A stretch of 64,000 nucleotides of DNA from Rhodothermales bacterium (GCA_951812335.1 OX638293.1:2313584-2377583); one strand, 5' to 3'. Positions 328 through 49,509 are shown, numbered from the stretch's first letter. Program-made: numbers and translations. Notes: generated by a model from the sequence alone, not told the origin.

Positions 328-409
328 GGATACTCTGATGAAGTCCGAGAAGTTCAGAGGCTGAGAGAGGCGCTTCACGCCCGCGACGCGCCGAATCCGC
401 AGTGTATCC
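328..409 (+). repeat. Internally deleted mini-copy (G) of the ~253-bp TIR repeat family
   Basis: GGATACTCTGATGAAGTCCG...CAGAGGCTGAG joined directly to the internal segment CGCTTCACGCCCGCGACGCGCCGAATCCGCAGTGTATCC. Flanks are CCAT and ACAT. Confidence 0.8.
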
Positions 410-554
410 ACATGTCCTTAACGCCGCGCCGGACACGTCGTTTCCGGTAGTTCGGAGCGCAACGCCCGCCCGGTTCAGGAACAAGCATCCTGGGGAGGCA
501 TACGCCCTTCGTGGCGTTTCTGCGTGCTGCACGCACCGCCGCCACACATTTCAC

Positions 555-3500
555 ATGACGTACCGCCTATCGACCTACCCGATCTACCCGATGATCCGTA
601 TTCGACACGCCGTTTTGCTACTCCTCACGGGTCTGCTTTCGGCATCGAGCGGGCAGGCCCGCCAACCGTCGGACCCAATTTTCCCGCCATCGCACGCTGC
701 CTCGAAGGAGCAAAATCCGAATCCAACCGTCCGTTACGAGATGGACATCACCGTCCATCCGGACCGGCATGCCATGCAGGGGCGCCAACGCCTCACGTAT
801 ACCAACACCTCCCCGGACACGCTCTCCCGCGTATTCTATCATCTCTACTTCAATGCCTTCCAGCCTCATTCCATGATGGCCGAACGGAACCGGCAATTGC
901 CGGATCCCGACCCGCGCACAGCGCCCCGCATTTTTGACCTTGGCTCGGACGAAATCGGCTATCACCGCATCGAATCGCTCACGCAGAACGGGGAAACCGT
1001 TTCGCATCGGATATTCGACACCGTCATGGAGGTGGCGTTGGCCCGCCCCCTCCCACCGGGCGGTCAGACCGTTTTCGACATGACGTTCGTTTCGCAAATC
1101 CCCCTCCAGACCCGCCGCAGCGGGCGGGACAGTCGCGAGGGAATCGATTATTCCATGACGCAATGGTATCCGAAACTCGCGCAGTACGATGCGCGCGGAT
1201 GGCATGCGGACCCCTATGTCGGCCGGGAGTTTTACGCCCCGTTCGGAACCTTCGACGTACGCATCACCCTGCCCTCCGAATATATCGTCGCAGCCACAGG
1301 AACCCTGCGGAACCCGAACGAGGTCGGCCACGGCTACGCAAGCGATTCGCTCAATACGGATACCCCTGCAGCACAAACCGATTCGCTGACCTGGCATTTT
1401 TACGCAGAAAATGTCCATGACTTCGCCTGGTCGGCCGACCCGGACTACATTCACGATGTGCTCGAAACGGAAGCAGGCTACGCCATTCACCTGCTCTACC
1501 AGCCGGATGTAGCCGAGGTATGGCAAACGCTCCACGAAGCCGCCCCGAAGATCATGGCGTTCTTCGAGGAACGCTACGGCCGCTATCTCTATCCGCAGAT
1601 GACCATTGCGCAGGGTGGGGACGGCGGAATGGAATACCCGATGATTACCCTCGTAACAGGCAAGCGCCCCCCACCCTCTCTTCTCGGCGTAACGGCCCAC
1701 GAAGTGGCGCATATGTGGTTTTACGGGATGATCGGGTCGAACGAAGCAGATCATGCGTGGATGGATGAAGGTTTTACGAATTATGCAACACGCGAAGTGC
1801 TTGCGCACATCCGCGAGCAACCGCGGCCCTCGCACGCGGGCGCGCTGTCCGGCATCCTGAATATGAAGCGCCTTGGTCTCTTCGAGCCGTTGAATACCCC
1901 CGGCGACTGGTTCGATACGAACATTGCCTATGGCGTATCCTCCTATTCGGGCGGCGAGATGATGCTCGACATGCTGGGCTACGTTATCTCCGACTCGCTG
2001 CGCGACCGGTTCCTGCTCGAATACCACCGGCAATTTGCGTTCCGGCATGCCGGTCCGCACGATGTCGAGCATGTCGCCGAGCAGGTGTCGGGCATCCGCC
2101 TCGACTGGTATTTCCAGCAATTCGGGGACGTGGACTGGGAACTGGATTACGAGGTGCGGAAATTCAGACGGACTCTGGACGGCGACGCATGGCGCACGAC
2201 CATGACGCTGAAAAGGCTTGGACGGGCCGTCATGCCCATCGACCTGCAAATCACGCTCGAAGACGGGTCGGTACAGTGGGTGCATATACCGCTGGGCGTC
2301 ATGCAGGGGCGCAAGCCAGTCCTGGAAGACTGGATCGTGGCGGCCCCCTGGGCCTGGACCTCGCCGGAATACGCGCTGGAAGTCATGTTGCCGGCGAAAC
2401 CGCGCAGCGCCGAAATCGACCCGTACGTACGAACTCCGGAATCGGATCGGCTCAACAACACCACCGCACGACCCATCGAGATTTCTTTCCTGAAACCTCC
2501 TTCCCCGAACATGCGCCGGTATGCCTACGGATGGCGTCCTGTCGTGCAGGTCGCACAATTCTGGGGCCCCGGCATAGGGGTTCAATACCGTGGAGCGTAT
2601 CCCCTCACCGGGAGAGAAAGAAAGGGTATGGTGAAGCTCTGGCCGCAGGTGCTCTTCAGCGAAGGAAACGAACCGGACGTTACCTATTTCCTGGCGGATC
2701 GTAAACCCCCGATGTTTAGAGCCTTCGACGGCGTCGACTACGACTTCTCCGCCTCGGAAGAGTATCTGAAAGGCTACCTGATAAACTGGTCGTCCCGGGC
2801 ACAGGAACGTTTGGGCGTTTACCAGGGCGACATGCGGGTGTCCTTTTCGGATCCGGACGACCTCCTGCGACCTAAAAGCCGCCGCTTTACGGTCGGTGCA
2901 AAGGGCCGTTTCCTGGTGAGCGACCGCGCCAGAACCCGGTACACGTCCAGCCTCCACCTGCGGGACATGTTTTCCATCTACGGGCGTCTGGAAGGAGCAA
3001 GCGACTGGTACCGATACACCCTTTTTGCGGAAACCGGCGTGGAAGACAGTGGACCATACACGGCCAACCGGATGTCGACGGATCTGGCTGTCGGCATGCC
3101 GATCGGGCCGTTCACAGGGTCTCTACGCCTGTTTCTGGGGGCTGGCGCACCGGACGGCCTCTCCCCGGACAAGCGATTCCGTTTCGGGGGCGTATCTCTT
3201 GAAGAACAGTGGAACGACACGGCGTACCGGACGGTGGAAGGGCTCTTCGAAGAACCGTTCCGCGATGCGCCCTGGGTGGCCTTTGGTGCGCCGGGCCCAG
3301 TCGCTTACATGCGCCAGACCGAGCCGTATTCCCGCAGCGGACACATACACCGGGATACCGATGCGCACGCACACCGGAACGGCGATTCGGACATCCGCCC
3401 GGACGAGGAAGATCTCCCTTTCGCTGTCCCGGAAATGATCGCCTTCAGCACAAGGCTGCTCTCGCCCCGGTTGCGGGGGCCGAGGTTCCTGCGCCCCCTC

Positions 3501-3788
3501 CGACTGGAACTGTTTATGGGCGCAGGATATGTGTTAGACCTGATAGAGCAAGAGCGGGACGAGCGTCGGAAACGGACCCTGATGGACGCCGGACTCGGCG
3601 TGCGGTACGATCTTAATCGCCTGCAGGGATTCGACCGCTGGATCCGACAATCCGACTTCCTGTCCGATCTTGTGCTCGTGGCGCGCTTTCCCCTGTGGGC
3701 GAACGATTACGAATATGCGGACAGCGACGCGCCCTTCGCCTTCCGCTGGCTGCTTGGCGTGCAACTGGACCGTCTTCCCTGGGATTGA
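555..3788 (+). CDS. M1 family zinc aminopeptidase, secreted, with long C-terminal extension (start 555 or 591)
   Basis: GGMEYP exopeptidase motif, HEVAH zinc motif with downstream MDEGF, N-terminal signal peptide, PQWYPK and DIDYSMT-like M1 N-domain motifs. Confidence 0.9.
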   Translation: MTYRLSTYPIYPMIRIRHAVLLLLTGLLSASSGQARQPSDPIFPPSHAASKEQNPNPTVRYEMDITVHPDRHAMQGRQRLTYTNTSPDTLSRVFYHLYFNAFQPHSMMAERNRQLPDPDPRTAPRIFDLGSDEIGYHRIESLTQNGETVSHRIFDTVMEVALARPLPPGGQTVFDMTFVSQIPLQTRRSGRDSREGIDYSMTQWYPKLAQYDARGWHADPYVGREFYAPFGTFDVRITLPSEYIVAATGTLRNPNEVGHGYASDSLNTDTPAAQTDSLTWHFYAENVHDFAWSADPDYIHDVLETEAGYAIHLLYQPDVAEVWQTLHEAAPKIMAFFEERYGRYLYPQMTIAQGGDGGMEYPMITLVTGKRPPPSLLGVTAHEVAHMWFYGMIGSNEADHAWMDEGFTNYATREVLAHIREQPRPSHAGALSGILNMKRLGLFEPLNTPGDWFDTNIAYGVSSYSGGEMMLDMLGYVISDSLRDRFLLEYHRQFAFRHAGPHDVEHVAEQVSGIRLDWYFQQFGDVDWELDYEVRKFRRTLDGDAWRTTMTLKRLGRAVMPIDLQITLEDGSVQWVHIPLGVMQGRKPVLEDWIVAAPWAWTSPEYALEVMLPAKPRSAEIDPYVRTPESDRLNNTTARPIEISFLKPPSPNMRRYAYGWRPVVQVAQFWGPGIGVQYRGAYPLTGRERKGMVKLWPQVLFSEGNEPDVTYFLADRKPPMFRAFDGVDYDFSASEEYLKGYLINWSSRAQERLGVYQGDMRVSFSDPDDLLRPKSRRFTVGAKGRFLVSDRARTRYTSSLHLRDMFSIYGRLEGASDWYRYTLFAETGVEDSGPYTANRMSTDLAVGMPIGPFTGSLRLFLGAGAPDGLSPDKRFRFGGVSLEEQWNDTAYRTVEGLFEEPFRDAPWVAFGAPGPVAYMRQTEPYSRSGHIHRDTDAHAHRNGDSDIRPDEEDLPFAVPEMIAFSTRLLSPRLRGPRFLRPLRLELFMGAGYVLDLIEQERDERRKRTLMDAGLGVRYDLNRLQGFDRWIRQSDFLSDLVLVARFPLWANDYEYADSDAPFAFRWLLGVQLDRLPWD

Positions 3789-3821
3789 CATCCCCTCAAC
3801 CTTGTAAATTCTGTCGAAGAA

Positions 3822-4613
3822 ATGCTTCGTTTATCGACCCGTAGGATCACAACCCTGACAGGCGCCGCGCTTCTTGCCCTTGCCGCATGCGGCGGCGAAC
3901 CATCCGAGCAGACGCCCGGCCAGAACAAAGCCGCGGATATCGTACGGCAGGCTGTCCTTGCACACGGCGGCGAACACGCGGACCGGGTGAAAATCGGTTT
4001 CGACTTCCGGGAATACCACTACACGATCATGCTGAACGGAGGAATGTTCCAGTACGAACGCGAGCGACCGGATTCGGTCGGGTATATCCGGGACGTACTG
4101 AATAACGACGGGTTCTACCGGGAAATAGACGGGGCGCGCGTGGACCTGCCGGAGGAGACGGCCGCCAGGTATTCCTTCTCCCTCAACGCCGTCTCCTACT
4201 TCATGCTGTTGCCTTTCAAGCTGACCGACAACGCCGTACAAACCCGGTATCTGGCCGAGGAAACCGTCAAGGGCGAGCCGTACCACGAAATCGAAGTGAC
4301 CTTTCGACAGGAAGGAGGAGGCCGCGACTACCAGGACCGGTTCGTGTACTGGTTTCACCGCGACCGCCACACCATGGACTATTTTGCGTACGATTACGAA
4401 ACAAGCGATTCCGGGACACGCTTCCGGGAAGCGTACAATGCGCGTACCGTGGGCGGTATCCGTTTCCAGGATTATCTGAATTTCACCTCGCCGGTTATCG
4501 CAGCGCCCGGAGACCCCATCGAGCAAATGGACAGTCTGCTGGACATCCAGGAACTGGACACGGTATCCGTCATCGAAACGACCGGCATCGTCGTAGAGAA
4601 AATCGACGAATAG
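3822..4613 (+). CDS. Lipoprotein, probable DUF6503 family
   Basis: Lipobox LAAC; FDFREYHY, NAVSYFMLLPFKL, EVTFRQEGGGRDYQD and RFREAYN match my recollection of DUF6503. Confidence 0.7.
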   Translation: MLRLSTRRITTLTGAALLALAACGGEPSEQTPGQNKAADIVRQAVLAHGGEHADRVKIGFDFREYHYTIMLNGGMFQYERERPDSVGYIRDVLNNDGFYREIDGARVDLPEETAARYSFSLNAVSYFMLLPFKLTDNAVQTRYLAEETVKGEPYHEIEVTFRQEGGGRDYQDRFVYWFHRDRHTMDYFAYDYETSDSGTRFREAYNARTVGGIRFQDYLNFTSPVIAAPGDPIEQMDSLLDIQELDTVSVIETTGIVVEKIDE

Positions 4614-4666
4614 ATGCGATCCCGGTCGTATATTCAATCACTTATCCATACAAAAACAATCACACC

Positions 4667-5236
4667 ATGACTGCAACCATGCACCGCACCTTGCTCCCCC
4701 TGCTCATCGCAGCAGGCCTTCTCGTTTTCGGCGCTCATTCCGTCGCCGCACAGGACGTCATTGAGCCACCCAACCCGCTGAGTCCGCGGGCCGTTACCCA
4801 AACCTCGTTCAACGATGGAACCTATGCCAGCATCCACTACGGATCGCCTCGCAAGCGCGACCGGGAAATTTTCGGCGAACTGGTGCCGTTCGGTCAGGTC
4901 TGGCGTCTGGGCGCTAACGAAGCCACAGAAATGACCGTGACGCAAGACATTCGGCTCGGAGACATGGATCTGGCCGCAGGCACCTATGCTCTCCTCGCCA
5001 TCCCGAACGAGGAAACATGGACCTTGATCGTGAATGCCGGCCTGGGCATGTGGGGCGCCTTTTCCTACTCGGATGAGCACGATGCCCTGCGCCTGGAAAC
5101 CCCGGTAAGCATGACCGACAACATCCACGAGGCGTTTACGATCGCCCTCGAGGCAAACGAGGAAGGCTCCGCCGCCACGCTTTCCATGATGTGGGATCGG
5201 ACAAGCGTGACGATTCCAGTAACGCCGGTGGAATAA
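4667..5236 (+). CDS. DUF2911 domain-containing secreted protein
   Basis: Signal peptide; LSPRA, IHYGSPRKRDREIFGELVPFGQVWRLGANEAT motif. Confidence 0.9.
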   Translation: MTATMHRTLLPLLIAAGLLVFGAHSVAAQDVIEPPNPLSPRAVTQTSFNDGTYASIHYGSPRKRDREIFGELVPFGQVWRLGANEATEMTVTQDIRLGDMDLAAGTYALLAIPNEETWTLIVNAGLGMWGAFSYSDEHDALRLETPVSMTDNIHEAFTIALEANEEGSAATLSMMWDRTSVTIPVTPVE

Positions 5237-5308
5237 TTCGCCGGCTATTCCCCCGGAAAGAGGATGCCTCGCAAGGTTGCCTCGTCGAAATCATGATGCG
5301 GACACGCC

Positions 5309-8149
5309 ATGCAGCTTTCGGGGCTTGACGTCGAGGCAGAGGGCACGGGCATATCGCGCCCGTTGAGCCGGCAGGTCAATCTCCTCGGCAAGCTACTTGG
5401 GCAGGCTATACGCCTGCAGGCAGGGCAGGACACCCTCGACCTGGTGGAGGAGTTACGGATGCTCTGCAAGCATGCGGTGACGGAGAATACCCCGGCGCCC
5501 CGTATAAAGGCGAAAAACCGCATTGCGCAGCTTGGCGACGAGGAGATTCTTTGGCTGCTTCGCGCCTACACCGCATTCTTCCATCTGGTGAATCAGGCGG
5601 AGCAGGAAGAAATCATCCGCATCAACCGGGATCGGGCCCGTTCCGGATCGCCGGAACAACCCCGGGCGGAATCCATCCTCGAGGCAATCCACTATCTCAA
5701 GGAAGAGGGATATTCCTACGAAGAAGTTCTCGCACTCTTCGGTCAACTGGATATCCAACCGACGCTGACGGCGCATCCTACGGAGGCGCGTCGGCTCAGC
5801 ATCCTGTACAAGCAACAGCACATCTCGCGGGTCCTGTCGCGGCTCAACCGGGAGCACCTGACACCGAGAGAAAAAGAACGCGCCCTATCGGATATCCGAA
5901 ACCAGATCGCCCTGCTCCTGTCCACCGATGAGATTCGCGCGGATACGCCCAGCGTAGACGACGAGGTGGACCAGGGGCTTTACTTCTTGCGCAATGCGAT
6001 CCGGGAAACCATACCGGACATCTATGACGACGTACGACGGGGACTGCATGCCTATTACGGGACATCGGGAGACATCCCCGTATTTCTGAAATACCGATCC
6101 TGGATCGGAAGCGACCGGGACGGCAACCCGAATGTCACGGCGGACGTAACGCGGCGAACCTTCGCTAAGCAGCGCCTCACCGCCATCAATATCTTTTATG
6201 AAGAATTGGTGGAACTGCGCCGGGAACTCAGTATTTCGAGCCGACAGGTATCCGTCCCCCAAGCGCTGTACGATGCGATCGCCGCCGATGCAAAGGATAT
6301 CGACCTCGACGCAAAAGCCCAACGGATATACCGCCACGAGCCCTACCGGCTCAAGATAAGTTATATGATGGAGCGGCTGCTCCGGCTCGCACAGCAAGTG
6401 CAGGCCGAGCTGGACCGGGATACGCCGCACCGGGACCGTCAGGAAACGGGCAGTGCATGCAGCTACAGCGGTGCGGCTTTTGTCCGGGACCTGGATACGC
6501 TCCGGAAATGTCTCGTCGGAACGGGCTACGAAGCCTATGCCGAAGCCGGTCACTTGCAGCGCATTCTCGTCCGGGCGCGCACATTCGGGTTTCATATGGC
6601 GGCGCTGGACGTACGACAGCACAGCCGCATACACGAGCAGGCCGTAACGGCTATCCTGCGCTCCGCAAACGTACACGACGATTACGCCAGCCTCGACGAA
6701 TCCGAAAAAATCGATCTGCTCGCCGGCGAACTGGAAAACCCGCGCGCTCTGGCGCCGCGCAACGCCGAATTGCCCGAAATGGCGCAGCAAGTCGTGGAAA
6801 GCTTCGAGGCCGTCCGGGAAATTCTTGACCGAGAGCCGTCCGCCATGGGCAGTTACGTCATCAGCATGACGCATACCGTAAGCGACGTGCTGGAGGCCAT
6901 GTTGCTGGCAAAGGTGGTTGGACTCTGGGGCATACAGGACGGGGAATTGTCCTGTCCGATCGATATCGTACCTCTCTTCGAAACGATCGAAGACCTGGCA
7001 GAGGCGGACGCGCTCATGAGCGCGCTCTTCTCCAACCCCGTGTACAACAAGCACCTCGAATCCCGCGGGCGTTTCCAGGAAATCATGCTTGGCTACTCGG
7101 ATTCGAACAAAGACGGCGGATACTGGATGGCCAACTGGGCGCTGCACAAGGCGCAAAAAGACCTGGGCGTTGTCTGTAGGGATCATGAGGTAACACTGCG
7201 GCTTTTTCACGGCCGGGGCGGTACAGTCGGGCGTGGAGGCGGCCGGGCCAATCAGGCTATTCTCGCCATGCCGCCCGTCGTGCATAATGGACAAATCCGG
7301 TTTACCGAGCAGGGAGAGGTCATCTCGTTCCGGTATGCGCTACCGGACATTGCCCGGCGACACCTGGAGCAGATTGTCAGTGCGATGATCGTGAGCACGG
7401 CCTCGGGATCGCGGCGGAACGGAAAAAACGACTATGGGACGGCGCCCGGAAATGTCGAGGTGCTGGATCGCATTGCGGGCAACTCCATGGAAGCTTATCG
7501 AGGGCTTATCGAAGACAGCGCCCTCTGGCCGTGGTATACGCAAGTCACCCCGATCGAGCAGATAAGCCGGTTGCCCATCGCTTCGCGGCCTGTTTCGCGC
7601 GGTTCTGCGCATGAGGTACACTTCGAATCGTTGCGGGCCATCCCGTGGGTCTTCGCATGGACCCAGACACGGTACACACTGCCGGGCTGGTTCGGAACGG
7701 GATACGGACTGGCCTCGCTCGCGGAAGAAGACCCGGAGATGCTATCCCGGCTCCGGACGCTCTATCGGGAATGGACCTTCTTCCGGGCCGTCGTGAACAG
7801 TGCGCAACGGGAAATGGCGCGGGCGCGGTTCGATATCTCGCAGCACTACAGGGAATTGGAGGATTCCTCCAAAGGCGCCCATATCCACGAACGGATCGCC
7901 GAAGATTTCCGCAGGGCGCATGACATGATTCTCTGGATCACCGGGCAAAACGAGCTACTCGACAGTAACCCGGTCATTCAGAAATCCATTTTCCTGCGCA
8001 ATCCCTACACGGACGTACTTAACCTGCTACAGGTCGAACTTATCAAGCGGTATAGGGCCGCCGAGCTGGAAGAAACACAGGATGCGCTTCGGCAGGCCCT
8101 GTTCCTGAGCATCAACGGCATTGCGGCAGCGATGCAGAGTACGGGGTAG
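5309..8149 (+). CDS. ppc: Phosphoenolpyruvate carboxylase
   Basis: LTAHPTE, SWIGSDRDGNP, QEIMLGYSDSNKDGG, FHGRGGTVGRGG, LRAIPWVFAWTQ and terminal GIAAAMQSTG. Confidence 0.98.
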   Translation: MQLSGLDVEAEGTGISRPLSRQVNLLGKLLGQAIRLQAGQDTLDLVEELRMLCKHAVTENTPAPRIKAKNRIAQLGDEEILWLLRAYTAFFHLVNQAEQEEIIRINRDRARSGSPEQPRAESILEAIHYLKEEGYSYEEVLALFGQLDIQPTLTAHPTEARRLSILYKQQHISRVLSRLNREHLTPREKERALSDIRNQIALLLSTDEIRADTPSVDDEVDQGLYFLRNAIRETIPDIYDDVRRGLHAYYGTSGDIPVFLKYRSWIGSDRDGNPNVTADVTRRTFAKQRLTAINIFYEELVELRRELSISSRQVSVPQALYDAIAADAKDIDLDAKAQRIYRHEPYRLKISYMMERLLRLAQQVQAELDRDTPHRDRQETGSACSYSGAAFVRDLDTLRKCLVGTGYEAYAEAGHLQRILVRARTFGFHMAALDVRQHSRIHEQAVTAILRSANVHDDYASLDESEKIDLLAGELENPRALAPRNAELPEMAQQVVESFEAVREILDREPSAMGSYVISMTHTVSDVLEAMLLAKVVGLWGIQDGELSCPIDIVPLFETIEDLAEADALMSALFSNPVYNKHLESRGRFQEIMLGYSDSNKDGGYWMANWALHKAQKDLGVVCRDHEVTLRLFHGRGGTVGRGGGRANQAILAMPPVVHNGQIRFTEQGEVISFRYALPDIARRHLEQIVSAMIVSTASGSRRNGKNDYGTAPGNVEVLDRIAGNSMEAYRGLIEDSALWPWYTQVTPIEQISRLPIASRPVSRGSAHEVHFESLRAIPWVFAWTQTRYTLPGWFGTGYGLASLAEEDPEMLSRLRTLYREWTFFRAVVNSAQREMARARFDISQHYRELEDSSKGAHIHERIAEDFRRAHDMILWITGQNELLDSNPVIQKSIFLRNPYTDVLNLLQVELIKRYRAAELEETQDALRQALFLSINGIAAAMQSTG

Positions 8150-8205
8150 GAGCTGGAAATTTCGCTTGCTTTCTCCGGGATCGAATTCGAATTCGATCAT
8201 GATAC

Positions 8206-8227
8206 AAGGAGCTTAAAGTGCTCCTTT
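8206..8227. terminator. Short hairpin between convergent ppc and small ORF, possible terminator
   Basis: AAGGAGC-TTAAAGT-GCTCCTT, 7-bp stem followed by T. Confidence 0.35.
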
Positions 8228-8558
8228 AACACCCCGTTTCCCCATCGACAATGCGCGCAACGGTAAGCGTGGCGGCATGGGCATACAGATCGGGCGCCAA
8301 CGTAAAGTCCGCATCGGCAGAAAAGCCGCCCTGAAATTCTGCATAGAAAGGAAGCGCCATCCCGGGAGCGTAATAATACGGCGGGGGCAAGGTACCTGCA
8401 TTATCGTCATAATACTGCAGATCGTACGAAGACGACCCCGAAGCAGGCGCATCCTCCGATTGAGAGGCCTCCGGCGGGTCCATACGATACCATATCGCCA
8501 TGCCGAGATTGGCGGCAAGGAGAACAATCAGCGTCACAAACAGCACCCGCACAGACAT
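8226..8558 (-). CDS. Hypothetical small membrane-anchored protein
   Basis: N-terminal hydrophobic helix (VLFVTLIVLLAANLGMAIWY); lies directly downstream of, and co-directional with, the MDR gene. No family recognised. Confidence 0.5.
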   Translation of the reverse strand: MSVRVLFVTLIVLLAANLGMAIWYRMDPPEASQSEDAPASGSSSYDLQYYDDNAGTLPPPYYYAPGMALPFYAEFQGGFSADADFTLAPDLYAHAATLTVARIVDGETGC

Positions 8559-8603
8559 GATGCGACGATACGTAAAGAGTTACAAGCACTGGGAAAACCC
8601 CGG

Positions 8604-10665: not shown

Positions 10666-10918
10666 GGGTACTCTGATTAAGTCCGCCAAGTTCAGAGACT
10701 GAAAGGGATGCGCCGGCAAGGATGACGAAGCAGTGTTGCAGACCCCACATAATGAGGAATGACGCGGCCAGCGTGCTTCTTCCAGCCTCCCGAAGGACTC
10801 TTCACGCCCGCACTGCCCCGAATCCGCAGCGTTTCCCGCTAATTCCGACGATGCAATTATAATATCTTTTACGTACGAACGTGAAGCGCCGATCGAGGCG
10901 GTTTTGATCAGAGTATCC
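10666..10918 (+). mobile_element. Full copy A of ~253-bp MITE-like structured repeat
   Basis: Ends GGGTACTCTGATTAAGTCCGC and GCGGTTTTGATCAGAGTATCC; homologous to copies at 20171, 21907, 30568 and 49254. Confidence 0.85.
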
Positions 10919-20170: not shown

Positions 20171-20422
20171 GGATACTCTGATTAAGTCCGCAAAGCTCAG
20201 AGGCTGCGGGGGTGCGCCGGCAAGGAATGCCGAAGCAGTGCGGCAAGCGCCACATAATAAGGAATGACGCAGCCAGCGTGCCCCTTGCAGCCTCCCGAAG
20301 GGCGCGTCACGTCCGCGACACCCCGAACTCGCAGTGCTTCCCCTCATTCCGACGATGGAATCATGATGTCCTGTACTTGCGAACGTGACGTGCCGAGCGA
20401 AGCGGTTTTGATCAGGGTATCC
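20171..20422 (+). mobile_element. Full copy B of ~253-bp MITE-like structured repeat
   Basis: GGATACTCTGATTAAGTCCGC ... GCGGTTTTGATCAGGGTATCC; abuts the stop codon of the GWxTD gene. Confidence 0.88.
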
Positions 20423-21868
20423 TTAGCGACGATACAGCGCCGATTGCCAGTTGGGGAGCGATCGCTCGCCTGGCACACTGGAATGCAGTAACTCGAAACT
20501 ACCGAACCCGGTAACGTCCGCAAACACGAAAACAGATTGGCCATGCCCCGGAATGTTGTTGTACTGCCAGATTTCGTGGGGAACCGTTGCCTGATCGTAT
20601 AAATGCGGTTCGATGTCGTTAGGCAACCCGTACGTGATGACGACCCGACCCCGATCGCTTTGCCAGCCCGCCTCGATGTTCGATGTGTACCGGTCGTTGG
20701 CATACTGCACGCGGCGATAAAACCCCTCCTTGAATTCATTGACCGGCGTCATGGGCTGGGCATCGCGCTTTTGCCAGAAATCCATCAGAAAACGACGCCG
20801 GGCATCCAGTTCGGATAGCCTCCGCATTCGACGCCTTTCCATATCGTTCGCAATGAGGCGGGCATGAGCCATACCCTGTTCGACCTCATCTTCCGACATC
20901 TCCGCATAGGAACTCGTCTCGAAGTCGATTTCGAGAATGGCCGGATCCTCGCGGGATACTCCCGGATTGTACACGAAAAACTTCCGCGACCGTTCGACGA
21001 CCCCCTCGTTCTGCTCGTCGAGCAGCACCATGTGGAACACATACGATCCTGTAGGCAGTCCGCCGGTATCGAAACTTCCGACAAGCACATCGGGGGATCT
21101 GACCGTGCGATCTAAGCGGTTCTCCAGATCGGCGATCGGGAGCAGGCGATCGGCGTCCGCCACGTACGTGTAGACGATGTACGTATTTCTGTCGGAACCT
21201 ATTTCCCCTGCGCCATATGCTTCCGCATAGTAATACATGCGACGCAAACCCTCACCGAACAGACGATTGGGACTGGGATGGACAAGGAGACCGTTTTTGA
21301 AGAAGGGATCGTTTCGGCGAGCGTTCGGCGCAATGCCGGTAGCCAGCGTAATGTCCGAAAGCGCCGGGGCGCCGTCCGGTTCGAAGCGACCCACCGGGAA
21401 CGCTTGCCGTATTCGCAGACCGGGCCGGGCAGGCATATCCGGAACGGTCAGGTGCAGCACATAGTCGTCGGGCGGTACGGCGGAGCGCATCTGATGCGTA
21501 AAATAGTGCCCGGAATGCATCCCGGCGGTGTCGGGAAGCGCAAAGCGCAGCACCGTGGAATCGGCCCACACGGGCGCCGCCCGGGTTTCGCCGGTATCCG
21601 TCGCGGCACCGGGAGCAAGTTCGAGGCGCAGTGGCAAAGACGCTACGAAACCATCGGCTTCGGCAGCCTCGAAATCCAAGGAAGCCGCCTCGACGCCGAT
21701 ATACACCTCAACGAGGGACACCGCTTCGTCGTACGCGAAGGCCGCATAATCGACATCCATCTTCACCGGCGCATGTTGTGCACGGGTACTACCGACCAGA
21801 AAACCGAAGGAGGCAAGCAACGCCATGCCTGTTCCGGCGGAAAAGATTGCTTTTCGAAAACCGATCAT
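20423..21868 (-). CDS. GWxTD domain-containing secreted protein
   Basis: Signal peptide; DFWQKRD, YRRVQYAN, GWQSDRGRVVITYGLP, EIWQY and FVFAD. Confidence 0.92.
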   Translation of the reverse strand: MIGFRKAIFSAGTGMALLASFGFLVGSTRAQHAPVKMDVDYAAFAYDEAVSLVEVYIGVEAASLDFEAAEADGFVASLPLRLELAPGAATDTGETRAAPVWADSTVLRFALPDTAGMHSGHYFTHQMRSAVPPDDYVLHLTVPDMPARPGLRIRQAFPVGRFEPDGAPALSDITLATGIAPNARRNDPFFKNGLLVHPSPNRLFGEGLRRMYYYAEAYGAGEIGSDRNTYIVYTYVADADRLLPIADLENRLDRTVRSPDVLVGSFDTGGLPTGSYVFHMVLLDEQNEGVVERSRKFFVYNPGVSREDPAILEIDFETSSYAEMSEDEVEQGMAHARLIANDMERRRMRRLSELDARRRFLMDFWQKRDAQPMTPVNEFKEGFYRRVQYANDRYTSNIEAGWQSDRGRVVITYGLPNDIEPHLYDQATVPHEIWQYNNIPGHGQSVFVFADVTGFGSFELLHSSVPGERSLPNWQSALYRR

Positions 21869-21906: not shown

Positions 21907-22160
21907 GGATACTCTGATCAAAATCACTTCGCCCGGCACTTTACTTTCGCACGTAAACGATGTCATGATTCCATCGTCGAAATCAGCGGAAAACACTGCG
22001 GATTCGGAGCATCGCGATCGGAAAGCACCCTTCGGGAGGCTGCGAGGGGCACGCTGGCCGCGTCATTCCTTATTATGTGGCGCTTGCCGCACTGCTTCGG
22101 CATTCCTTGCCGGCGCACCCCCTGCAGCCTCTGAGCTTTACGGACTTAATCAGAGTATCC
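21907..22160 (-). mobile_element. Full copy C (reverse orientation) of ~253-bp repeat, with perfect 4-bp CTAT direct repeats
   Basis: TIRs GGATACTCTGAT / ATCAGAGTATCC; CTAT at 21903-21906 and 22161-22164. Confidence 0.9.
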
Positions 22161-30567: not shown

Positions 30568-30821
30568 GGATACTCTGATTAAGTCCACTTCAATCGGCAC
30601 TTCACTTTCGCGAGGACAGGACATCATGATTCCATCGTTGAAATCAGCGGCAAACATTACGGATTCGTGGCGTCGCGGGCGTGAAGCGCCCTTCGGGAAG
30701 CAGAGAGGGGCACGCTGGCCCCGTTATTCCTCATTATGTGGGGCCTGCCACACTGCTTCGTCATTCCTTGCCGGCGCACCCCTCTCAGCCTCTGGTCTTT
30801 GCGGATTTAATCAGAGTATCC
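30568..30821 (-). mobile_element. Full copy D (reverse orientation) of ~253-bp repeat
   Basis: Both ends read GGATACTCTGATTAA; flanks TAAA and TGAA; internal homology to the other copies. Confidence 0.88.
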
Positions 30822-32143: not shown

Positions 32144-32185
32144 GGATACTCCGATCAAAACCGCTTCGATCAGCGCTTCACGTTC
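32144..32185 (-). repeat. Partial copy H: right terminus only of the ~253-bp repeat
   Basis: GGATACTCCGATCAAAACCGCTTCGATCAGCGCTTCACGTTC is the reverse complement of the element's right end. Confidence 0.8.
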
Positions 32186-32832
32186 TATCGATACTCCTCG
32201 ACACACAGCGTGCGGACGTACCGCTTGGCTTCCCGTTCGTCGTTGGTGGCCACGACCACGATCGCGCCAGCTTGCAGTCTGGCCTCGATGACGGCGGATA
32301 TCATAAAGCGGCCTTCTCCGTCGAGATGCTCGTTCGGCTCGTCCAAAAGCAGCAGCGGCGGATCGACAAGCAGCGCCGCCGCCAGTTTGACGCGCTGCAC
32401 CATGCCGGACGAGAACGTGGAGACCCGGTCGTGCATGCGACGGGCCAGCCCGACGGATGCGAGCGTCTCCTCGATCCGCTCCTCCTTGTTCGCAAGGCGG
32501 CGCGCCCGGGCAATAAACCGCAAATTCTCCCGGGGAGAAAACCCTGCGTATACATTCACGTACGGCGCTACGAGGCCGGCATACATGGGATGCGCTTCCT
32601 GCGCCAACCCGACCCCGTTCACGCGAAGCGAAACGGTTCCTTCGCTCGGCGACATCACTCCGGCCAGAATGCGAAGCAAGGTGGACTTGCCGGACCCGTT
32701 GACGCCGGTCACGGCAAGGCGCTCTCCGCCGGATAAGGAAAACGAAAGCTCCCGGAAAAGGAGTCGCCTGCCGAACCGGCGGGCGACGCCGCGTACGTCC
32801 AGAACCGGCAGGGCATCCCGGGACTGCATCAT
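32185..32832 (-). CDS. ABC transporter ATP-binding protein, CcmA-like
   Basis: Walker A GVNGSGKST, signature FSSGMVQR and Walker B LLLLDEP. No permease adjacent. Confidence 0.88.
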   Translation of the reverse strand: MMQSRDALPVLDVRGVARRFGRRLLFRELSFSLSGGERLAVTGVNGSGKSTLLRILAGVMSPSEGTVSLRVNGVGLAQEAHPMYAGLVAPYVNVYAGFSPRENLRFIARARRLANKEERIEETLASVGLARRMHDRVSTFSSGMVQRVKLAAALLVDPPLLLLDEPNEHLDGEGRFMISAVIEARLQAGAIVVVATNDEREAKRYVRTLCVEEYR

Positions 32833-43260: not shown

Positions 43261-43310
43261 ATTATGGTCTATAACCGGATCGGGAAATACACACGGATCG
43301 GTAGACGGGT

Positions 43311-44216: not shown

Positions 44217-44237
44217 CAGGATTAGGAAAATTCGGGC

Positions 44238-46934
44238 TTACCGGTACGCCGGGTTCAGCGCGCGTTTGAGCGACGAAGCATCGTCGAGGCGCATGATGCG
44301 CACATGGCGGTACCAGACCGGACGACCGTGATCCTGCAAGCCGATACGGCCTTCCTTCGCAAAATCCCGGATGGCGCGTCCAAACTTGTTCCTTGCGCCG
44401 TTCGGATTCATATGCGCCGTGATCCACTGGTCCAGATCCGCCTCGGCGACACGCACCCCGTTCACTTCGGTGACGATCTGGTTGTCAATGGCGAAAACGC
44501 GCAGCCAGTTCCATTCCCCCGGCGGGTGCACGGGATTGTTGTGCGGCTTGACCAGATCGTAGAGCGTACCGGTCGTGCTCCCCTGGCTCGTCGGCCTGCC
44601 GTAGGAATTGTTCACCTGCACCTCGAATCCCGTGTATACCGGATCGGCGATGTTTTCCGTACGGATGAAAATACCGCTGTTCGAATTCTCGACCGTCTTG
44701 AACTCGACCTCCAGCACAAAATCTCCATAGGCGTCCTTCGCCCAGAGGTAGTGTTCGTTCGGCATGGAGTTGTCGAACTCGCGGTCGAGCAGGATCATGC
44801 CGTCCCGGACTACCCAGGAATGGCCTTCGCCGGCAACCCAGTTCTCCATGTCCTCCTCGCGGCCGTCGAACAGGATCTCCCAGCCTTCCGGGTAATCCAT
44901 ACGGGCAATGTCTTCTCGCTGCTTGTCGTCGATCGGGTCGATCCAGATGTTGCGGAATTCGATTATGCTGGATGTCGGATCCATGACGCCCGTGTCCTCG
45001 ATCATGCCTCCGTGGTGCTGGAGGCCGATGGGGCCGCATTCGGGAATGCCGGGAACAAGCGCATTACGGATGACCTCCTCCCCGTTCAGACGCACCGTAA
45101 CCCGATCGCCGATCATCCGGATATCGAACTCGTTCCACTCTCCGATCGGGTGATCCATCCGCCTGGACGGAACCGCCGCCGCGCGCACTTCCGGCGCGTT
45201 GTCCTCGTTCGTGCGCACCCCCCAGAGCTCGCCGGAGCCTACGCCCCAGTTCCAGATATTCGCCTGGTCATACGATCCGCGCAGGAGGATACCCGAATCC
45301 GAGTTTGGCGTGGGATTCGTGACCGTGTTCCCGTCGGCGTCCGTTTCGTACGTGCCGTCCGGCAGGATACTCGGCATATCGAAGATACCCGAAGCCTCCG
45401 GGAAGCGCCATTCCACATGCAGGTTGTAATCGCAGTACTCCTCCTCCGTGAAAAGATGCTTCATTTCCGCTTCAGAAAGGGCGTCGTACTTGATCGTGAA
45501 GTCCTCGACTTTCCAGTGCCCGCCGTCGCCTTCCGGGACGACCCAGCCGCTGAAATCCCTGCCGTTGAACAACGTACGATACTCGCCCCAGTCACGCCAG
45601 GAGTCGTATTCGTCGTACGTGGGCAGGCGGTACGCATCGCCCGGCGTAGGCGGAGCGCCTTCGTTGTAGAAGATGTACAGGCCCGCCTTGCTCGGATTGA
45701 CGACATCGTTTCGCCCATCGCCGTTCATGTCCGCCACATGCACATTCATGCCCATGCCGAACACATAATTCGGCGGCGGATTCAGGCTCGCCTCGTATCC
45801 GAACCGGGGCAGGTGGTTGTAAAACAGAATGTGCCGCTTCGGATTGCCGCCGTTGAAATCGTACCAGAAACCGAAAAGCGGCTCGAAAGCGCCGATGTCT
45901 CTGCCGTAGTGCGCCAGCAGCCGCCGTCCCGCCACCAGGTCGTCCTTGCCGTCGCCGTTCAGATCGCCCAGCGCCAGCGTGTGGAACTGGCTGAATTCGG
46001 TTTCGAGCCAGTGTTCTTCGAACGACCGCTCGTGGCCCTCCATCTTCTGCGCATACCAGGCCAGCCCGTACGCATGCGCAGACCCGATAATGACATCGTT
46101 CAGGCCGTCCCCGTTCACGTCGTGCACCAGAATCGGATGGGAAGCCGCACTGGCGATCCGTTCCTTGAGCGACTCGAACTTCCAGTCGTCGTGATAGGCC
46201 CACATACCTCTTGCCGCTTCGCCGCCCGGGTTTTCATACCACCCCAGCGATGTCACGATGTCCGGATCGCCGTCCATGTCGATGTCGCCCAGGCCGTTCC
46301 CGTGCATATCCACATCGTACCCCACCACATGCTCGACGAAATACGGGTGCTCGTCGATGTACTCCAGCCACGTCATGCCCTGTTCCTCATAGAGTGACCA
46401 GTGGTTCACCAGAATGTCGTCGTCGCCGTCGCCGTCGATGTCATGGTGCCCCTCGACGCCCTCCATATTGAACGCCTGGTGCACCTTGTGCGAGGTCCAT
46501 GTGTCGACCTTGTTGCAGGGATTCTTGTACCAGTAGGCGCCTTTCATGAACATCCAGCCGGAACTTACGATGTCCGTACAGCCATCCCTGTCCACATCCA
46601 TGGCGAACTCGGCGTTGTTCTCCGTTTCCGGGCCGTTCACATCCCCGCCGCTGCGGAAATTTTCGTGCTTGATCCAGAGAGGAGCCTCGTACCAGTTGCG
46701 GCCCGCTACGAGGTCCAGATCGCCGTCGTTGTCGATGTCCACGACGCTCGCGGTCTCCGAGAACGGGCCGAACCAGTACGATCCGTTCGCCGGGTCGTGC
46801 GGGGGGCCGTCCACCTTGACCGGCTGGAACAGAATAGTGGGTTCGGGAGCCTGCGCCTGGAGCGCAACAGGCATAAGAAGGCACGCCGCCGCGAAAAGCG
46901 GCAGCAAGGTCGTGATTCGCATGTTGGAGGTCAT
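44238..46934 (-). CDS. Secreted FG-GAP/VCBS repeat protein with two C-terminal DUF1080 (3-keto-disaccharide hydrolase) domains
   Basis: Repeats DIDNDGDLDL, DVDRDGCTDI, DVNGDGLND and DLNGDGKDDL; twice LFxG..GW/NSGI/G.IGLQ.HG/FRNI motifs. Confidence 0.88.
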   Translation of the reverse strand: MTSNMRITTLLPLFAAACLLMPVALQAQAPEPTILFQPVKVDGPPHDPANGSYWFGPFSETASVVDIDNDGDLDLVAGRNWYEAPLWIKHENFRSGGDVNGPETENNAEFAMDVDRDGCTDIVSSGWMFMKGAYWYKNPCNKVDTWTSHKVHQAFNMEGVEGHHDIDGDGDDDILVNHWSLYEEQGMTWLEYIDEHPYFVEHVVGYDVDMHGNGLGDIDMDGDPDIVTSLGWYENPGGEAARGMWAYHDDWKFESLKERIASAASHPILVHDVNGDGLNDVIIGSAHAYGLAWYAQKMEGHERSFEEHWLETEFSQFHTLALGDLNGDGKDDLVAGRRLLAHYGRDIGAFEPLFGFWYDFNGGNPKRHILFYNHLPRFGYEASLNPPPNYVFGMGMNVHVADMNGDGRNDVVNPSKAGLYIFYNEGAPPTPGDAYRLPTYDEYDSWRDWGEYRTLFNGRDFSGWVVPEGDGGHWKVEDFTIKYDALSEAEMKHLFTEEEYCDYNLHVEWRFPEASGIFDMPSILPDGTYETDADGNTVTNPTPNSDSGILLRGSYDQANIWNWGVGSGELWGVRTNEDNAPEVRAAAVPSRRMDHPIGEWNEFDIRMIGDRVTVRLNGEEVIRNALVPGIPECGPIGLQHHGGMIEDTGVMDPTSSIIEFRNIWIDPIDDKQREDIARMDYPEGWEILFDGREEDMENWVAGEGHSWVVRDGMILLDREFDNSMPNEHYLWAKDAYGDFVLEVEFKTVENSNSGIFIRTENIADPVYTGFEVQVNNSYGRPTSQGSTTGTLYDLVKPHNNPVHPPGEWNWLRVFAIDNQIVTEVNGVRVAEADLDQWITAHMNPNGARNKFGRAIRDFAKEGRIGLQDHGRPVWYRHVRIMRLDDASSLKRALNPAYR

Positions 46935-46947
46935 GGGAAGTACGATA

Positions 46948-47001
46948 TGGCGTAGAAATGGTATAAAAATGATGTAAAATGGTGTAAAAAAGGAGTAAAA
47001 A
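46948..47001. repeat. Five tandem ~11-bp degenerate units (consensus TGGTGTAAAAA) upstream of the FG-GAP/DUF1080 gene
   Basis: TGGCGTAGAAA TGGTATAAAAA TGATGTAAAA TGGTGTAAAAA AGGAGTAAAAA. Confidence 0.75.
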
Positions 47002-47022
47002 AGGATCCCTACGGGTGCGTAG

Positions 47023-47475
47023 CTATCCGGCCATCGTGGCGATAGCCGCCCCGGCGACCATCAGCACGGCGCCGCCCATTTGCACAAGGGAAATCGGTTC
47101 ATGGGCCGACAACCACCCGAAATGGGACATGATCAGGCCGCCGATCACCTGGCCGGCAAGCAGAATGATGAAGAAGTTTCCGGCGCCCACTTGCGGAATG
47201 GACCATGCGATGGCGAACACCAGGCAAGCGCCCATCGCACCCGCGGTCAGGAGCAGGGGATGTACATTCTTCAGGCCTCCCAGAGCGCCTGCCTCCCAGC
47301 CGGTCAGGCCGACAATGATGGCCATAACGGCGCCAATGGTCCAGAAGACCGCGTTCGCCACACGAGGGTTGGCCATGATTTCGCCTACCTTTGCATTCAT
47401 CGCAAGGTGGACTGCAACGATGATGCCGAGCACCACCACAAAAATAAAAAACGGGAGTTTCATGATGTCAGACAC
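47023..47475 (-). CDS. DMT family transporter, YdcZ/DUF606-like
   Basis: MNAKVG, LLTAGAMGA, PQVGAG, GQVIGGLIMSHFGW; hydrophobic throughout. Confidence 0.85.
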   Translation of the reverse strand: MSDIMKLPFFIFVVVLGIIVAVHLAMNAKVGEIMANPRVANAVFWTIGAVMAIIVGLTGWEAGALGGLKNVHPLLLTAGAMGACLVFAIAWSIPQVGAGNFFIILLAGQVIGGLIMSHFGWLSAHEPISLVQMGGAVLMVAGAAIATMAG

Positions 47476-47571
47476 CTGTTAGTGGGTGGAAGCAAGTATG
47501 CGGAAAAGCGCTTCGAAAAAACAACCGCTCTTCGGAAAAGCAGCCGCGACCGCAATAAAACTACTCCTATG

Positions 47572-47600
47572 AGGGTACTGCGCAGAATCGTTTTAGTCAA
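47572..47600 (-). promoter_or_regulatory. Candidate sigma70-like promoter directly abutting repeat copy F
   Basis: Minus strand TTGACT-17 nt-TACCCT, about 100 nt upstream of the DMT gene. Confidence 0.3.
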
Positions 47601-47645
47601 GGATACTCTGATTAAATCCGCGAAGTTCAGAGGCTGCGAGGGGTA
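47601..47645 (+). repeat. Partial copy F: left terminus only of the ~253-bp repeat
   Basis: GGATACTCTGATTAAATCCGCGAAGTTCAGAGGCTGCGAGGGGT. Confidence 0.82.
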
Positions 47646-47846
47646 TAGGGCGGTGCAGCGGATCGGAAGCCGTTGGCCTGCGCGATACCGAGGTCGTTCG
47701 ACGCCGCGGAGCCGCCCCCGATCACGCCGAAGCGTGCGTCAAGGCCGTAAGGACCTGCGGCAAATCGAAGCAGGCCCGGTGCGCAAGGCGGCAGCCTGCC
47801 GTCTTCGGGAGAGTCGAAGACGCAGAGGATGGAGGGGTTTCTCGCC

Positions 47847-48587
47847 CTAAATTTTGAGATGTAGGCCTAAAAATTTGAAATCGCTTCCCTTGCATGTAAG
47901 GCCCTTGAATTTACAAGCCAATTGATAAAATTCTATTTCATGCGAAATTACGATAGTATCAAATAACAGGGTATACTCTACGCCAAATCCGGCATTGATT
48001 CCAGGTATTATTGATTTACCGTCAGGGCGATCCGTCTTAATCTCAACAGATACAGGTATCGTTTCTCCGTCACATCTTTCTTCTCCCGGGAGATCACCTG
48101 TTATATCACCGGTATAAACATAATTTGTTACGTTATGGGAAAATTTTCTGTTAAAATGCAAAATAATAGGCCCTCCAAATATGTATACTACTTTCTTTAG
48201 TGGGTAATAATTATAACGTACATAAAATCTTTTTACATGTTCATTACGATCAGATACAGAACTCCAAATTGCTTGGTATTTATTATATCTTATACTAAAA
48301 AAACGAAAAGGGTAAGGTGCAATATCCTCAATATTTTCAATATCCGGATCGCCGTAAAATGGAACAGCAGCAAAGAAAGTATACACACCGCTCTGGAGAC
48401 CTGTCCGGGAAAGGTAAACTCCGACTCGCAATTTTTTATCGCGTTCTATCCCTCTTCCCTGTTCTGCTGGCGTATCCTGGGCTGCCGCCGGAGCTGTTGG
48501 TAAAAGCATAGTAACTGCAAGGACTATCACCCCGAACAAAAGGCGCTCGTGCGAAACAATGCGAGGAAGAAAAAACAAATTTCTCAT
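47847..48587 (-). CDS. Hypothetical exported protein with AT-rich body, possible small outer-membrane beta-barrel
   Basis: Signal peptide (AAA-QD); alternating hydrophobic strands GINAGFGVEY and LGLHLKI; marked GC drop over ~47860-48420. Confidence 0.7.
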   Translation of the reverse strand: MRNLFFLPRIVSHERLLFGVIVLAVTMLLPTAPAAAQDTPAEQGRGIERDKKLRVGVYLSRTGLQSGVYTFFAAVPFYGDPDIENIEDIAPYPFRFFSIRYNKYQAIWSSVSDRNEHVKRFYVRYNYYPLKKVVYIFGGPIILHFNRKFSHNVTNYVYTGDITGDLPGEERCDGETIPVSVEIKTDRPDGKSIIPGINAGFGVEYTLLFDTIVISHEIEFYQLACKFKGLTCKGSDFKFLGLHLKI

Positions 48588-48603
48588 GGAGCACCTATTC
48601 GTA

Positions 48604-48815
48604 TTATTTGAGAAGCGTCATGCGGTGCGTACTGTGGAAATCGCCTGTCTGTATCCTGTATAAGTAGACGCCACTCGGAAGGTTCCCGGCATCGAAGCGA
48701 GCGCGGTGCCTGCCTGCAGGCAGTTCCTCCTGCACGAGACGTGTCACCTCCCTGCCAGCACATCGTAAACGACGAGTGAAACCATGGCATACCGCGCCGC
48801 CATAGAAAACATATC
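48604..48815 (-). pseudogene. Orphan T9SS type A C-terminal sorting domain remnant, frameshifted
   Basis: VSLVVYDVL, then a 1-nt loss near 48755, then GREVTRLVQEELPAGRHRARFDAGNLPSGVYLYRIQTGDFHSTHRMTLLK*. Confidence 0.85.
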
Positions 48816-49253
48816 CATGCCTCTGAAAAAAGAGCATTACCTGCAAAAGTTTGACAGGGCTCCGGTTGCTTCTTCGGCCTTGGCGCACACATAGCGACAA
48901 AGACTTGACTGCGCTCACTTTGTCATGCGTTGGCACAGCCTTCAAAAAGGGCATTTCATATAAAATTTAACTATAGTTATACAGAGTATTGTGTAGGTTT
49001 AATGGTGATTTGGTGATAATCAGTGTTTTTATGATGTATATTTGTTCGAATCTCTAACGTACAGGCTATCTTGGACATGATTAAAGATCAAAACAATCAT
49101 CCGTCCGGAATACTATTCCCCTCACAAACCTCGCTCCTCCTCGCGAGCTTCCCGCTGGTATTCCAGATACTCGTCGCTGTATTCGAATGGGGTCCCCGAG
49201 TAGGTATTCGCATACTCGCCAATAATGCCGAAAAACCCGAATTATTTCCTCAA

Positions 49254-49509
49254 GGATACTCTGATTAAGTCCGCAAAGCTCAGAGGCTTGCGAGGGGCGG
49301 GCTGGCAAGGAGTGACGAAGCAGTGTGGCCTGTCCCCCACACAATGAGGAATGACGCGGCCAGCGTGCTTCTCGCAGCCTCCCGGAGGGCGCGTCACGTC
49401 TGCGATGCCCCGAATTCGCAGTGTTTCCCCTGATTCCAACGGTGGAATCATGACAACCTGTACTTGCGAACGTGACGCGCTGAGCAAAGTGGTTTTGATC
49501 AGAGTGTCC
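49254..49509 (+). mobile_element. Full copy E of ~253-bp repeat
   Basis: GGATACTCTGATTAAGTCCGC ... GTGGTTTTGATCAGAGTGTCC. Confidence 0.88.

Follow-up and report, generated by a model that had tools for sequence, protein, structure and literature searches.

The 64-kb stretch of DNA analysed here, hereafter the window, lies at positions 2,313,584-2,377,583 of a Rhodothermales bacterium genome (G000) that is assembled as a single contig of 2,686,407 bp with 58.3% G+C. Repeats of about 254 bp with inverted ends are scattered between its genes, and the window contains no intact insertion sequence (IS) with the same ends. What are these repeats, and what dispersed them? [quoted passage not shown] The analysis described below leads us to conclude, with a probability of roughly 0.92, that the repeats are an IS5-derived, type-II bacterial MITE, a reading that includes mobilization in trans by a parent IS.

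Inverted ends, target duplications and empty sites

Copies in the window and in the genome were located with a profile made from copies of the MITE (model length 254). The search of G000 returned 281 matches, about 120 of them full length, on both strands and evenly spread. Together they occupy 42.7 kb, which amounts to 1.59% of G000 and to about 10% of its non-coding DNA as delimited by a rough gene model; the density in the window is typical for the genome. The consensus is 254 bp long, starts with GGATACTCTGATTAAGTCCGC and ends with GTGGTTTTGATCAGAGTATCC, and the copies share a mean pairwise identity of 82%. Their termini, GGATACTCTGATTAAGTCC on the left and GGATACTCTGATCAAAACC on the right, are imperfect terminal inverted repeats (TIRs) of about 21 bp with per-column conservation of 0.95 and 0.90, respectively. 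When used as patterns with up to three mismatches, they gave nine matches each in the window against none expected from 100 shuffles, which bears out the inverted ends that had been proposed. The further claim that the element is non-coding holds as well. There is no conserved open reading frame (ORF) across the copies; the longest frame spans 13-68 codons depending on the copy and lacks codon periodicity. The idea that the MITE encodes a small protein was rejected because the 46-codon frame of the consensus is not conserved between copies.

Perfect 4-bp target-site duplications (TSDs) flank 39 of the 119 full-length copies in the set used for this purpose, compared with 9.4 in a control in which the flanks of different copies were paired, and 35 more copies carry a duplication with one mismatch. 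Among the same 119 copies there is no excess of duplications at 3 or 5 bp. Both flanks conform to the consensus T-T/A-A/T-A, with TTAA as the commonest tetramer. One end of 24 of the 119 copies lies within 4 bp of a neighbouring stop codon, a proportion (about one fifth) that fits a target containing TAA.

The placement of the copies, determined with a rough ORF model, bears the mark of selection. Target density alone predicts that 63-72% of insertions would be genic, whereas none of the 119 full copies lies wholly inside a predicted gene; the present distribution is therefore what selection has left. The surviving insertions are the intergenic ones, and selection shapes where copies persist. 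Divergent (5'/5') spacers contain 32% of the copies against a background of 16%, twice the expectation, and convergent spacers contain half the expected number. Orientation relative to neighbouring genes is only weakly biased, with 45 copies opposite and 27 in the same sense in tandem contexts.

The family has a narrow taxonomic range. One uncultured Rhodothermales genus carries the MITE in each of its 12 species genomes (24 to 450 candidates per genome at first look), and all 29 genomes examined from other genera of the same family and order lack it, in keeping with the lineage specificity originally proposed. A scan for the terminus, with one genome per species, identified the relatives as metagenome-assembled genomes of uncultured Rhodothermales.

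Comparison with the 11 sister species, among them G002, G003, G004, G005, G006 and G010, revealed unoccupied counterparts of the insertion sites. Filled and empty sites were compared by local alignment of each flank separately, and for copies A-D of the window (Table 1) the flanks were joined as hypothetical empty alleles and used as queries. Alignments of the joined flanks ran uninterrupted through the junction in most or all sister species, and in all 11 at site D. Empty alleles hold the target 4-mer once. At site D, G006 and G002 read TATA-TAAA-ATATCG and G010 reads TATA-TGAA-AATCG; the corresponding order in G000 is TAAA, MITE, TGAA. Site C is empty in G006, G002, G010 and G005, and both G006 and G002 show clean empty alleles at sites A and B. 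The empty alleles of site B in these two species read ...TCxCG TTAA CGACG, and a solo right terminus of 14 bp lies at this TTAA in G010. Site A is occupied by a 37-bp collapsed form in G010 and by a mini-form in G005. The search for an empty allele of site E gave no clean answer, its left flank being poorly conserved and the locus rearranged among relatives. An apparently filled site B in G004 was rejected; the extra 266 bp found there are not MITE sequence.

Occupancy of the entire syntenic 64-kb region varies widely among species. In G000 it contains five full copies and four fragment matches. Among four relatives that are each about 89% identical to G000, G010 has three full copies and four fragments, G005 has one full copy and two mini-forms, G006 has one fragment and G002 has none. 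The polymorphism also runs in reverse, because G010 and G005 carry full copies at sites that are empty in G000 (at about 15.1 kb and 23.0 kb of the window). In the spacer that contains site A, G003 carries an independent insertion at another position, flanked by a perfect TTAT duplication.

These features bear on a quite different explanation, in which the repeats are REP/BIME palindromes spread by a RAYT (Y1) transposase or are non-mobile repeats homogenized by recombination. The repeats are intergenic, abundant and strongly palindromic, as such an explanation would have it. However, REP units are palindromes of 20-40 bp that lack TIRs and TSDs of this kind, and a 254-bp unit with 21-bp TIRs and 4-bp TSDs does not fit the definition of the RAYT-associated REP/BIME elements. 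Together with the clean empty sites and the DDE-type IS that shares the ends of the MITE (see below), this leaves the explanation with hardly any probability.

An IS5-family insertion sequence with matching ends

A search of the genus for PF01609 yielded 13 full-length matches in G002 (2,978,365 bp) and 12 in G003 (3,162,098 bp). At 15 of 19 loci the gene lies between two inverted, exact copies of the 12-mer GGATACTCTGAT, and three further loci have one exact end. The resulting IS is 1,181 bp long in G002 and 1,171 bp in G003, and perfect 4-bp TSDs (ttaa, taag, tata, ttga, taaa, caaa, tgta and acat) flank 10 of the 15 bracketed loci. TTAA dominates among its targets, but TATA, TGTA, ACAT and CAAA are also used, so that the specificity is looser than YTAR. 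The single ORF encodes 315-329 amino acids with the domains DUF772 (PF05598) and DDE_Tnp_1 (PF01609). The transposase matches the NCBIfam profile NF033581 ("IS5 family transposase") over positions 1-284 of 285 with 324.4 bits (cut-off 140), and the IS5-type partner anticipated by the original prediction is thus present in G002 and G003. Thousands of homologues that are about 60% identical carry the label "IS5 family transposase", the closest proteins have no element name, and identity to a protein labelled InsH of IS5 is about 44%. Copies of the IS share 99.5-99.8% identity within each of the two genomes and 89% between G002 and G003; the near-identity within each genome indicates recent activity of the IS in both.

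The MITE matches this IS at both of its ends. Its left end agrees in 18 of 19 bases with the IS end upstream of the transposase gene and its right end in 15 of 15 bases with the downstream end, so that left/right polarity is kept. The core shows no homology to the IS beyond the terminal 15-20 bp, even at a word size of 7. IS ends placed around an unrelated core of 215 bp define a type-II MITE. With the TIRs, TSDs and non-coding interior, the MITE part of the original description stands, and the term "ERIC-like" holds as an analogy only.

The agreement in ends and targets suggests that this IS5-family transposase moves the MITE in trans. According to this model, transposase supplied by the 1.17-1.18-kb IS would recognize the ~20-bp ends of the MITE and excise or copy the element. 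Insertion would follow at a TTAA-like 4-bp target through a 4-bp staggered cut, and repair would generate the 4-bp TSD. Such cut-and-insert chemistry is established for IS4/IS5-type DDE transposases, and by analogy it probably applies to the MITE.

No intact IS with the ends of the MITE was found in the window or in the whole of G000, apart from one stub. The putative mobilizing enzyme therefore lies outside the window, as had been supposed, and is missing from the rest of the genome as well. The stub, a 229-bp 3' remnant at G000:2685046-2685274, is 87% identical to IS positions 939-1175 and still contains the codons for the C-terminal 29 residues of the transposase; its terminus is mutated. 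Its presence indicates that the parent formerly resided in this lineage and has since been lost, and with the parent lost, the MITEs of G000 are no longer mobile by that route. The approximately 280 copies and fragments in G000 would then be orphans that only decay, through internal deletions and reduction to solo ends and 37-bp forms.

Several candidates for a resident parent in G000 were rejected. Pairs of termini 0.6-4 kb apart, which might mark an autonomous copy, recur at a spacing of about 1.83 kb; the intervals lack homology, and the spacing is coincidental. The sole PF01609 match in G000 belongs to an 857-bp element (G000:636223-637079) of the IS5/IS427 type that has different ends. 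This element contains two ORFs (DUF4096 and DDE_Tnp_1), has the TIR GGGCGTGTTAACACTAA and is flanked by a TA duplication. It sits in a solo MITE terminus, with the order GCGGACTTAAT, IS and GAGTATC (locus L099, G000:C1:634780-638154), and it must therefore have arrived later than the MITE.

G000 also harbours three copies of a 1,239-bp IS1595-family IS (G000:C1:528823-530061, 1507378-1508616 and 2256190-2257428) that are 99-100% identical. The element has TIRs TGGAACTTATCAAGAATGCTTGACAG, encodes a 312-amino-acid transposase with Zn_ribbon_IS1595 and DDE_Tnp_IS1595 domains, and is flanked by the 4-bp direct repeats AATG, TGGC and GCTT; most members of the IS1595 family generate an 8-bp duplication. 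Could a resident transposase of this kind move the MITE? It is an intact, recent IS with an ISXO2-like DDE domain and with flanking direct repeats of the appropriate length, and its activity would account for lineage-specific insertions in a genome without an IS5-type parent. However, its ends are unlike those of the MITE and its targets are not TTAA-like, and it was rejected as the parent for these reasons. The IS5-type IS, on the other hand, fits the MITE in both termini, polarity and target, and its decayed stub attests to its former presence in G000. We consider mobilization by another resident transposase highly improbable.

Several observations weigh against an IS5-derived MITE mobilized in trans. 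Mobilization by the IS5-family IS is inferred from common termini and target; the two elements are alike in the terminal 15-20 bp alone, and the MITE is not a simple deletion derivative of the IS. Their abundances are uncoupled: G002 has 13 copies of the IS and about 32 MITE candidates, and G000 and G004, which lack an intact IS of this type, have 271 and 450 candidates, respectively. Perfect duplications occur at just one third of the copies (39 of 119), and the gene calls behind the context analysis come from our own rough ORF model. Finally, G010 holds remnants at the exact positions occupied in G000 at sites A and B, which are empty in G006 and G002. These two sites reflect either an ancestral insertion followed by precise loss or the repeated use of one target. 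We nevertheless favour an IS5-derived MITE. Two outcomes had been named beforehand that would speak against it, and both turned out otherwise: empty alleles exist, and an IS shares the termini.

Hairpins in the core

The consensus is predicted to fold into two long hairpins (model positions 25-125 and 133-228), with the paired termini closing the structure. Its folding energy is -124 kcal/mol, compared with -84 for shuffled sequences (z = -7.7), and the opposite strand folds somewhat worse. Per-column conservation is 0.94 at the apex of hairpin 1 (positions 53-102), 0.88 in its basal stem and 0.82 in hairpin 2, so that the apex is about as conserved as the left terminus. The same contrast recurs in the copies of other species, and the positions at which the consensus sequences of the species differ are concentrated in hairpin 2. 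The apex presents two unpaired GGAATGACG motifs and a TGTGGCAGGCCCCACA tip. The GGAATGACG motif is absent from the IS and, within G000, is nearly restricted to the MITE family.

Compensatory double changes were recorded in 236 cells distributed over 37 pairs, compared with 53-111 cells when the 3' partners were moved by one to three columns; these counts are of cells, not of independent events. Among pairs of hairpin 1 with a Watson-Crick majority, G:T exceeds A:C in 18 pairs and the reverse holds in 5 (p = 0.011). No such bias was detected in hairpin 2 or in the termini. Selection need not be involved, since template switching inside a quasi-palindrome can also re-establish pairing. Taken together, the data argue with moderate strength for a constraint on hairpin 1 to fold on the modelled strand, and they do not prove an RNA.

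It is tempting to speculate that the apex of hairpin 1 is a functional module, acting as a structured RNA or as a single-stranded DNA element, although we regard this as unlikely. In this reading the basal stem of hairpin 1 would be maintained in paired form through compensatory changes. Such a module might serve as a cis-acting enhancer of mobilization that binds a protein of the host or of the element, or as a small regulatory RNA that transposition has carried across sponge-symbiont genomes. If hairpin 1 proves to be transcribed or bound by protein, it would represent a functional module spread by a bacterial MITE. The covarying, conserved hairpin is the sole feature of the family that goes beyond the routine.

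A stronger proposal would reverse the roles, making the repeats primarily a dispersed structured-RNA gene or a regulatory module recruited by the host, with copies that persist because hairpin 1 works as RNA or single-stranded DNA and with transposon ends that are incidental. The folding of the consensus far beyond that of shuffles, the conservation of the apex at the level of the left terminus, the compensatory changes in 37 pairs, the G:T bias that points to a single folding strand and the enrichment in divergent spacers all agree with it. However, the compensatory cells are not independent and could reflect pairing restored by template switching, and the orientation bias relative to neighbouring genes is weak. 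With Rfam 15, no match in the window reached the gathering score, and a search with two copies at E <= 1 gave only a match at chance level (E = 0.87). Promoters of the sigma-70 type and intrinsic terminators do not occur at fixed places in the copies above chance, in a search that did not cover Bacteroidota-type promoters. Moreover, the TSDs, the empty sites and the IS with the same ends show that the copies were dispersed by transposition. The stronger proposal is thus very unlikely, and a structured-RNA role could accompany an IS5-derived MITE but not take its place.

Window copies, decay products and related elements elsewhere

The profile recovered five full copies and three fragments in the window and nothing further (Table 1). 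All eight sites named in the original prediction were found, the full copies with E values of 3.3e-77 or lower. The first of the partial copies extends to 423 instead of 409 and is internally deleted. Copies occur in both orientations as stated, with the small correction that copy D is on the minus strand. All of them lie between predicted genes, again as stated, and the perfect CTAT duplication at copy C and the other flanks that had been quoted were confirmed in the sequence. The full copies are 86.6-89.4% identical to the genome-wide consensus, with copy A, which lies in a divergent spacer, at 86.6%.

Table 1. Full and partial copies of the MITE in the window (positions counted from the first base of the window; model length 254)
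Feature	Position	Strand	Match to model	Flanking tetramers
Copy A, full, 253 bp	10666-10918	+	1-254, E = 2.5e-78	CTTG/CAAG
Copy B, full, 252 bp	20171-20422	+	1-254, E = 3.3e-77	TCAA/TTAG
Copy C, full, 254 bp	21907-22160	-	1-254, E = 1.2e-80	CTAT/CTAT (perfect TSD)
Copy D, full, 254 bp	30568-30821	-	1-254, E = 2e-82	TAAA/TGAA
Copy E, full, 256 bp	49254-49509	+	1-254, E = 1.1e-77	TCAA/TTTA
Degenerate, internally deleted copy	328-423	+	two adjoining matches, 1-46 joined to 131-186; right end lost	
Solo right-end fragment	32144-32186	-	212-254, E = 4.9e-09	
Solo left-end fragment	47601-47644	+	1-44, E = 1.8e-10	

The neighbours of these copies are ordinary housekeeping genes that encode a class II aminoacyl-tRNA synthetase, a GWxTD-domain protein, a metallophosphoesterase, a QTMAN-type glycosyltransferase and a ComF-like phosphoribosyltransferase. 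Copy B adjoins the stop codon of the GWxTD-domain gene (20423-21868, minus strand). The TTAA target of the empty site-B alleles (window 20420-20425) includes the TAA stop of that gene.

Two of the partial copies have counterparts in sister species. The copy at 328 marks an old, shared and decayed site, whose counterpart in G010 holds a fragment of the right end (model 164-254), and G006 has a fragment (model 190-254) at the place orthologous to 32144, which marks the latter as an old remnant common to both genomes. The solo left end at 47601-47644 lies 1.6 kb upstream of copy E in the same orientation. The 1.6-kb segment between the two (window 47645-49253) contains ORFs at 47847-48587 and 48584-48892, both on the minus strand and both without a Pfam match. 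A single MITE copy replaces all of 47601-49509 in G010, and G002 aligns through at least 48790. The segment was either deleted in G010 by recombination between direct MITE ends or gained in G000.

The decay products include mini-forms, which are present at 21 loci of G000 (for example, 124907-124943, 452802-452838, 1989406-1989442 and 2005988-2006024) and are 37 bp long at all but one, where the length is 36 bp. They fall into two mirror-image types that consist of about 25 nucleotides of one terminus joined to 12 nucleotides of the other at TCAGAG or CTGA microhomology, and 4-bp duplications often flank them. The states of site A, which holds a full copy in G000, the 37-bp form in G010 and another mini-form in G005, show that a mini-form can, at least in some cases, originate in place through a deletion between short direct repeats brought together by the hairpin.

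Composites represent a second type of derivative. A 335-bp form, in which a full copy is followed by TTAA and model positions 176-254, is present with an identical inner junction at six loci of G000 (for example, 2643505-2643843, 1136143-1136482 and 2439071-2439411). Several are flanked by outer duplications such as TATA/TATA or TTAA/TTAA. The composite probably originated by nested insertion and then moved as a unit via its outermost ends.

Other repeats of G000 include a 526-bp unit in three copies that are 92-99% identical (563526-564051, 565438-565953 in inverted orientation, and 1303982-1304507). It consists of one MITE and about 270 bp of identical flanks, the MITE being embedded in a larger unit. 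Long tandem arrays, whose periods are about 294 bp and 471 bp, and a family of multi-kb, internally repetitive regions that cross-match at 75-97% identity lie at G000:13814-16663 and 192407-195717 and at 195.7-199.5, 480-487, 686-694, 1391-1397, 1797-1804, 2092-2095, 2289-2292 and 2605-2608 kb. The arrays and repetitive regions are possibly large genes for repetitive surface proteins.

A conserved 19-mer of hairpin 1 provided information on the habitat of the hosts. It gave more than 120 matches in metagenome contigs, mostly in records LXNJ01 and LXNI01, and no exact match in viral contigs. These two records are metagenomes of the sponges Petrosia ficiformis and Sarcotragus foetidus (PMC5099237). 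The host genus of the MITE is a group of sponge-associated symbionts.

The element is of an ordinary, known kind; the family itself is new and apparently undescribed. As the original prediction had it, the family is an unrecognized one, with no match in Rfam or in the literature searched, and no paper that combines MITEs with Rhodothermales was found in that literature. Its recognition annotates about 10% of the non-coding DNA in an uncultured genus of sponge symbionts (by the rough gene model), provides a diagnostic, genus-specific marker sequence and explains contig breaks in the assembly and binning of these symbionts. The genus also offers a natural series, in which G002 has an active IS and few MITEs, G003 an active IS and many, and G000 and G004 no IS and hundreds. 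This series should be useful for studying MITEs that outlive their parents.

How do the MITE and its parent compare with known systems? IS5 of E. coli and the IS5 group of its family are about 1.2 kb long, encode one transposase (InsH), have ends that start with GG and generate a 4-bp duplication at YTAR. The parent IS resembles them in length (1.17-1.18 kb), in its single ORF, in its GG-starting ends and in its A/T-rich 4-bp duplications. It is nevertheless a distinct IS of uncultured Rhodothermales with targets looser than YTAR.

Abundant, genus-restricted intergenic elements with TIRs that form hairpins include Correia/NEMIS of Neisseria, ERIC/IRU of enterobacteria and bcr1 of the Bacillus cereus group. 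MITEs of this type are often co-transcribed with their neighbours, and the duplication of Correia elements is TA. For several of these families the partner transposase is unknown or belongs to other families. The Rhodothermales MITE differs from them in its unrelated sequence and its TSDs, and a putative partner can be named for it from the shared ends.

The closest parallels are MITEs that share only their TIRs, in identical or nearly identical form, with resident IS5-family ISs. In Porphyromonas gingivalis these are BrickBuilt, MITE239/PgRS, MITE293 and MITE700, which are related in this way to ISPg1/3/4/9, and in Neisseria meningitidis the ATR element shares its termini with ISNme1 around an unrelated interior (PMC4596501). 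Like the Rhodothermales MITE, they are non-coding, multi-copy and intergenic, occur as full and partial copies and combine IS5-family TIRs with an unrelated interior; P. gingivalis, moreover, is in a broad sense likewise a member of the Bacteroidota. The sequences are not similar, however, and the TIRs are of the GAGACCTTTGCA type in P. gingivalis and Neisseria as opposed to GGATACTCTGAT here. Copy numbers also differ, with about 120 full copies and about 280 in total in G000 compared with 10-20 per genome in P. gingivalis and Neisseria. Their duplications are variable, whereas those described here are regular, 4 bp long and TTAA-like. Unlike them, the Rhodothermales MITE has no internal minisatellite, contains two long hairpins, one of them strongly conserved, and in G000 has lost its parent IS. 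In its restriction to a single genus it conforms to a 2024 census, which found that MITE families are typically genus-specific (PMC11602168).

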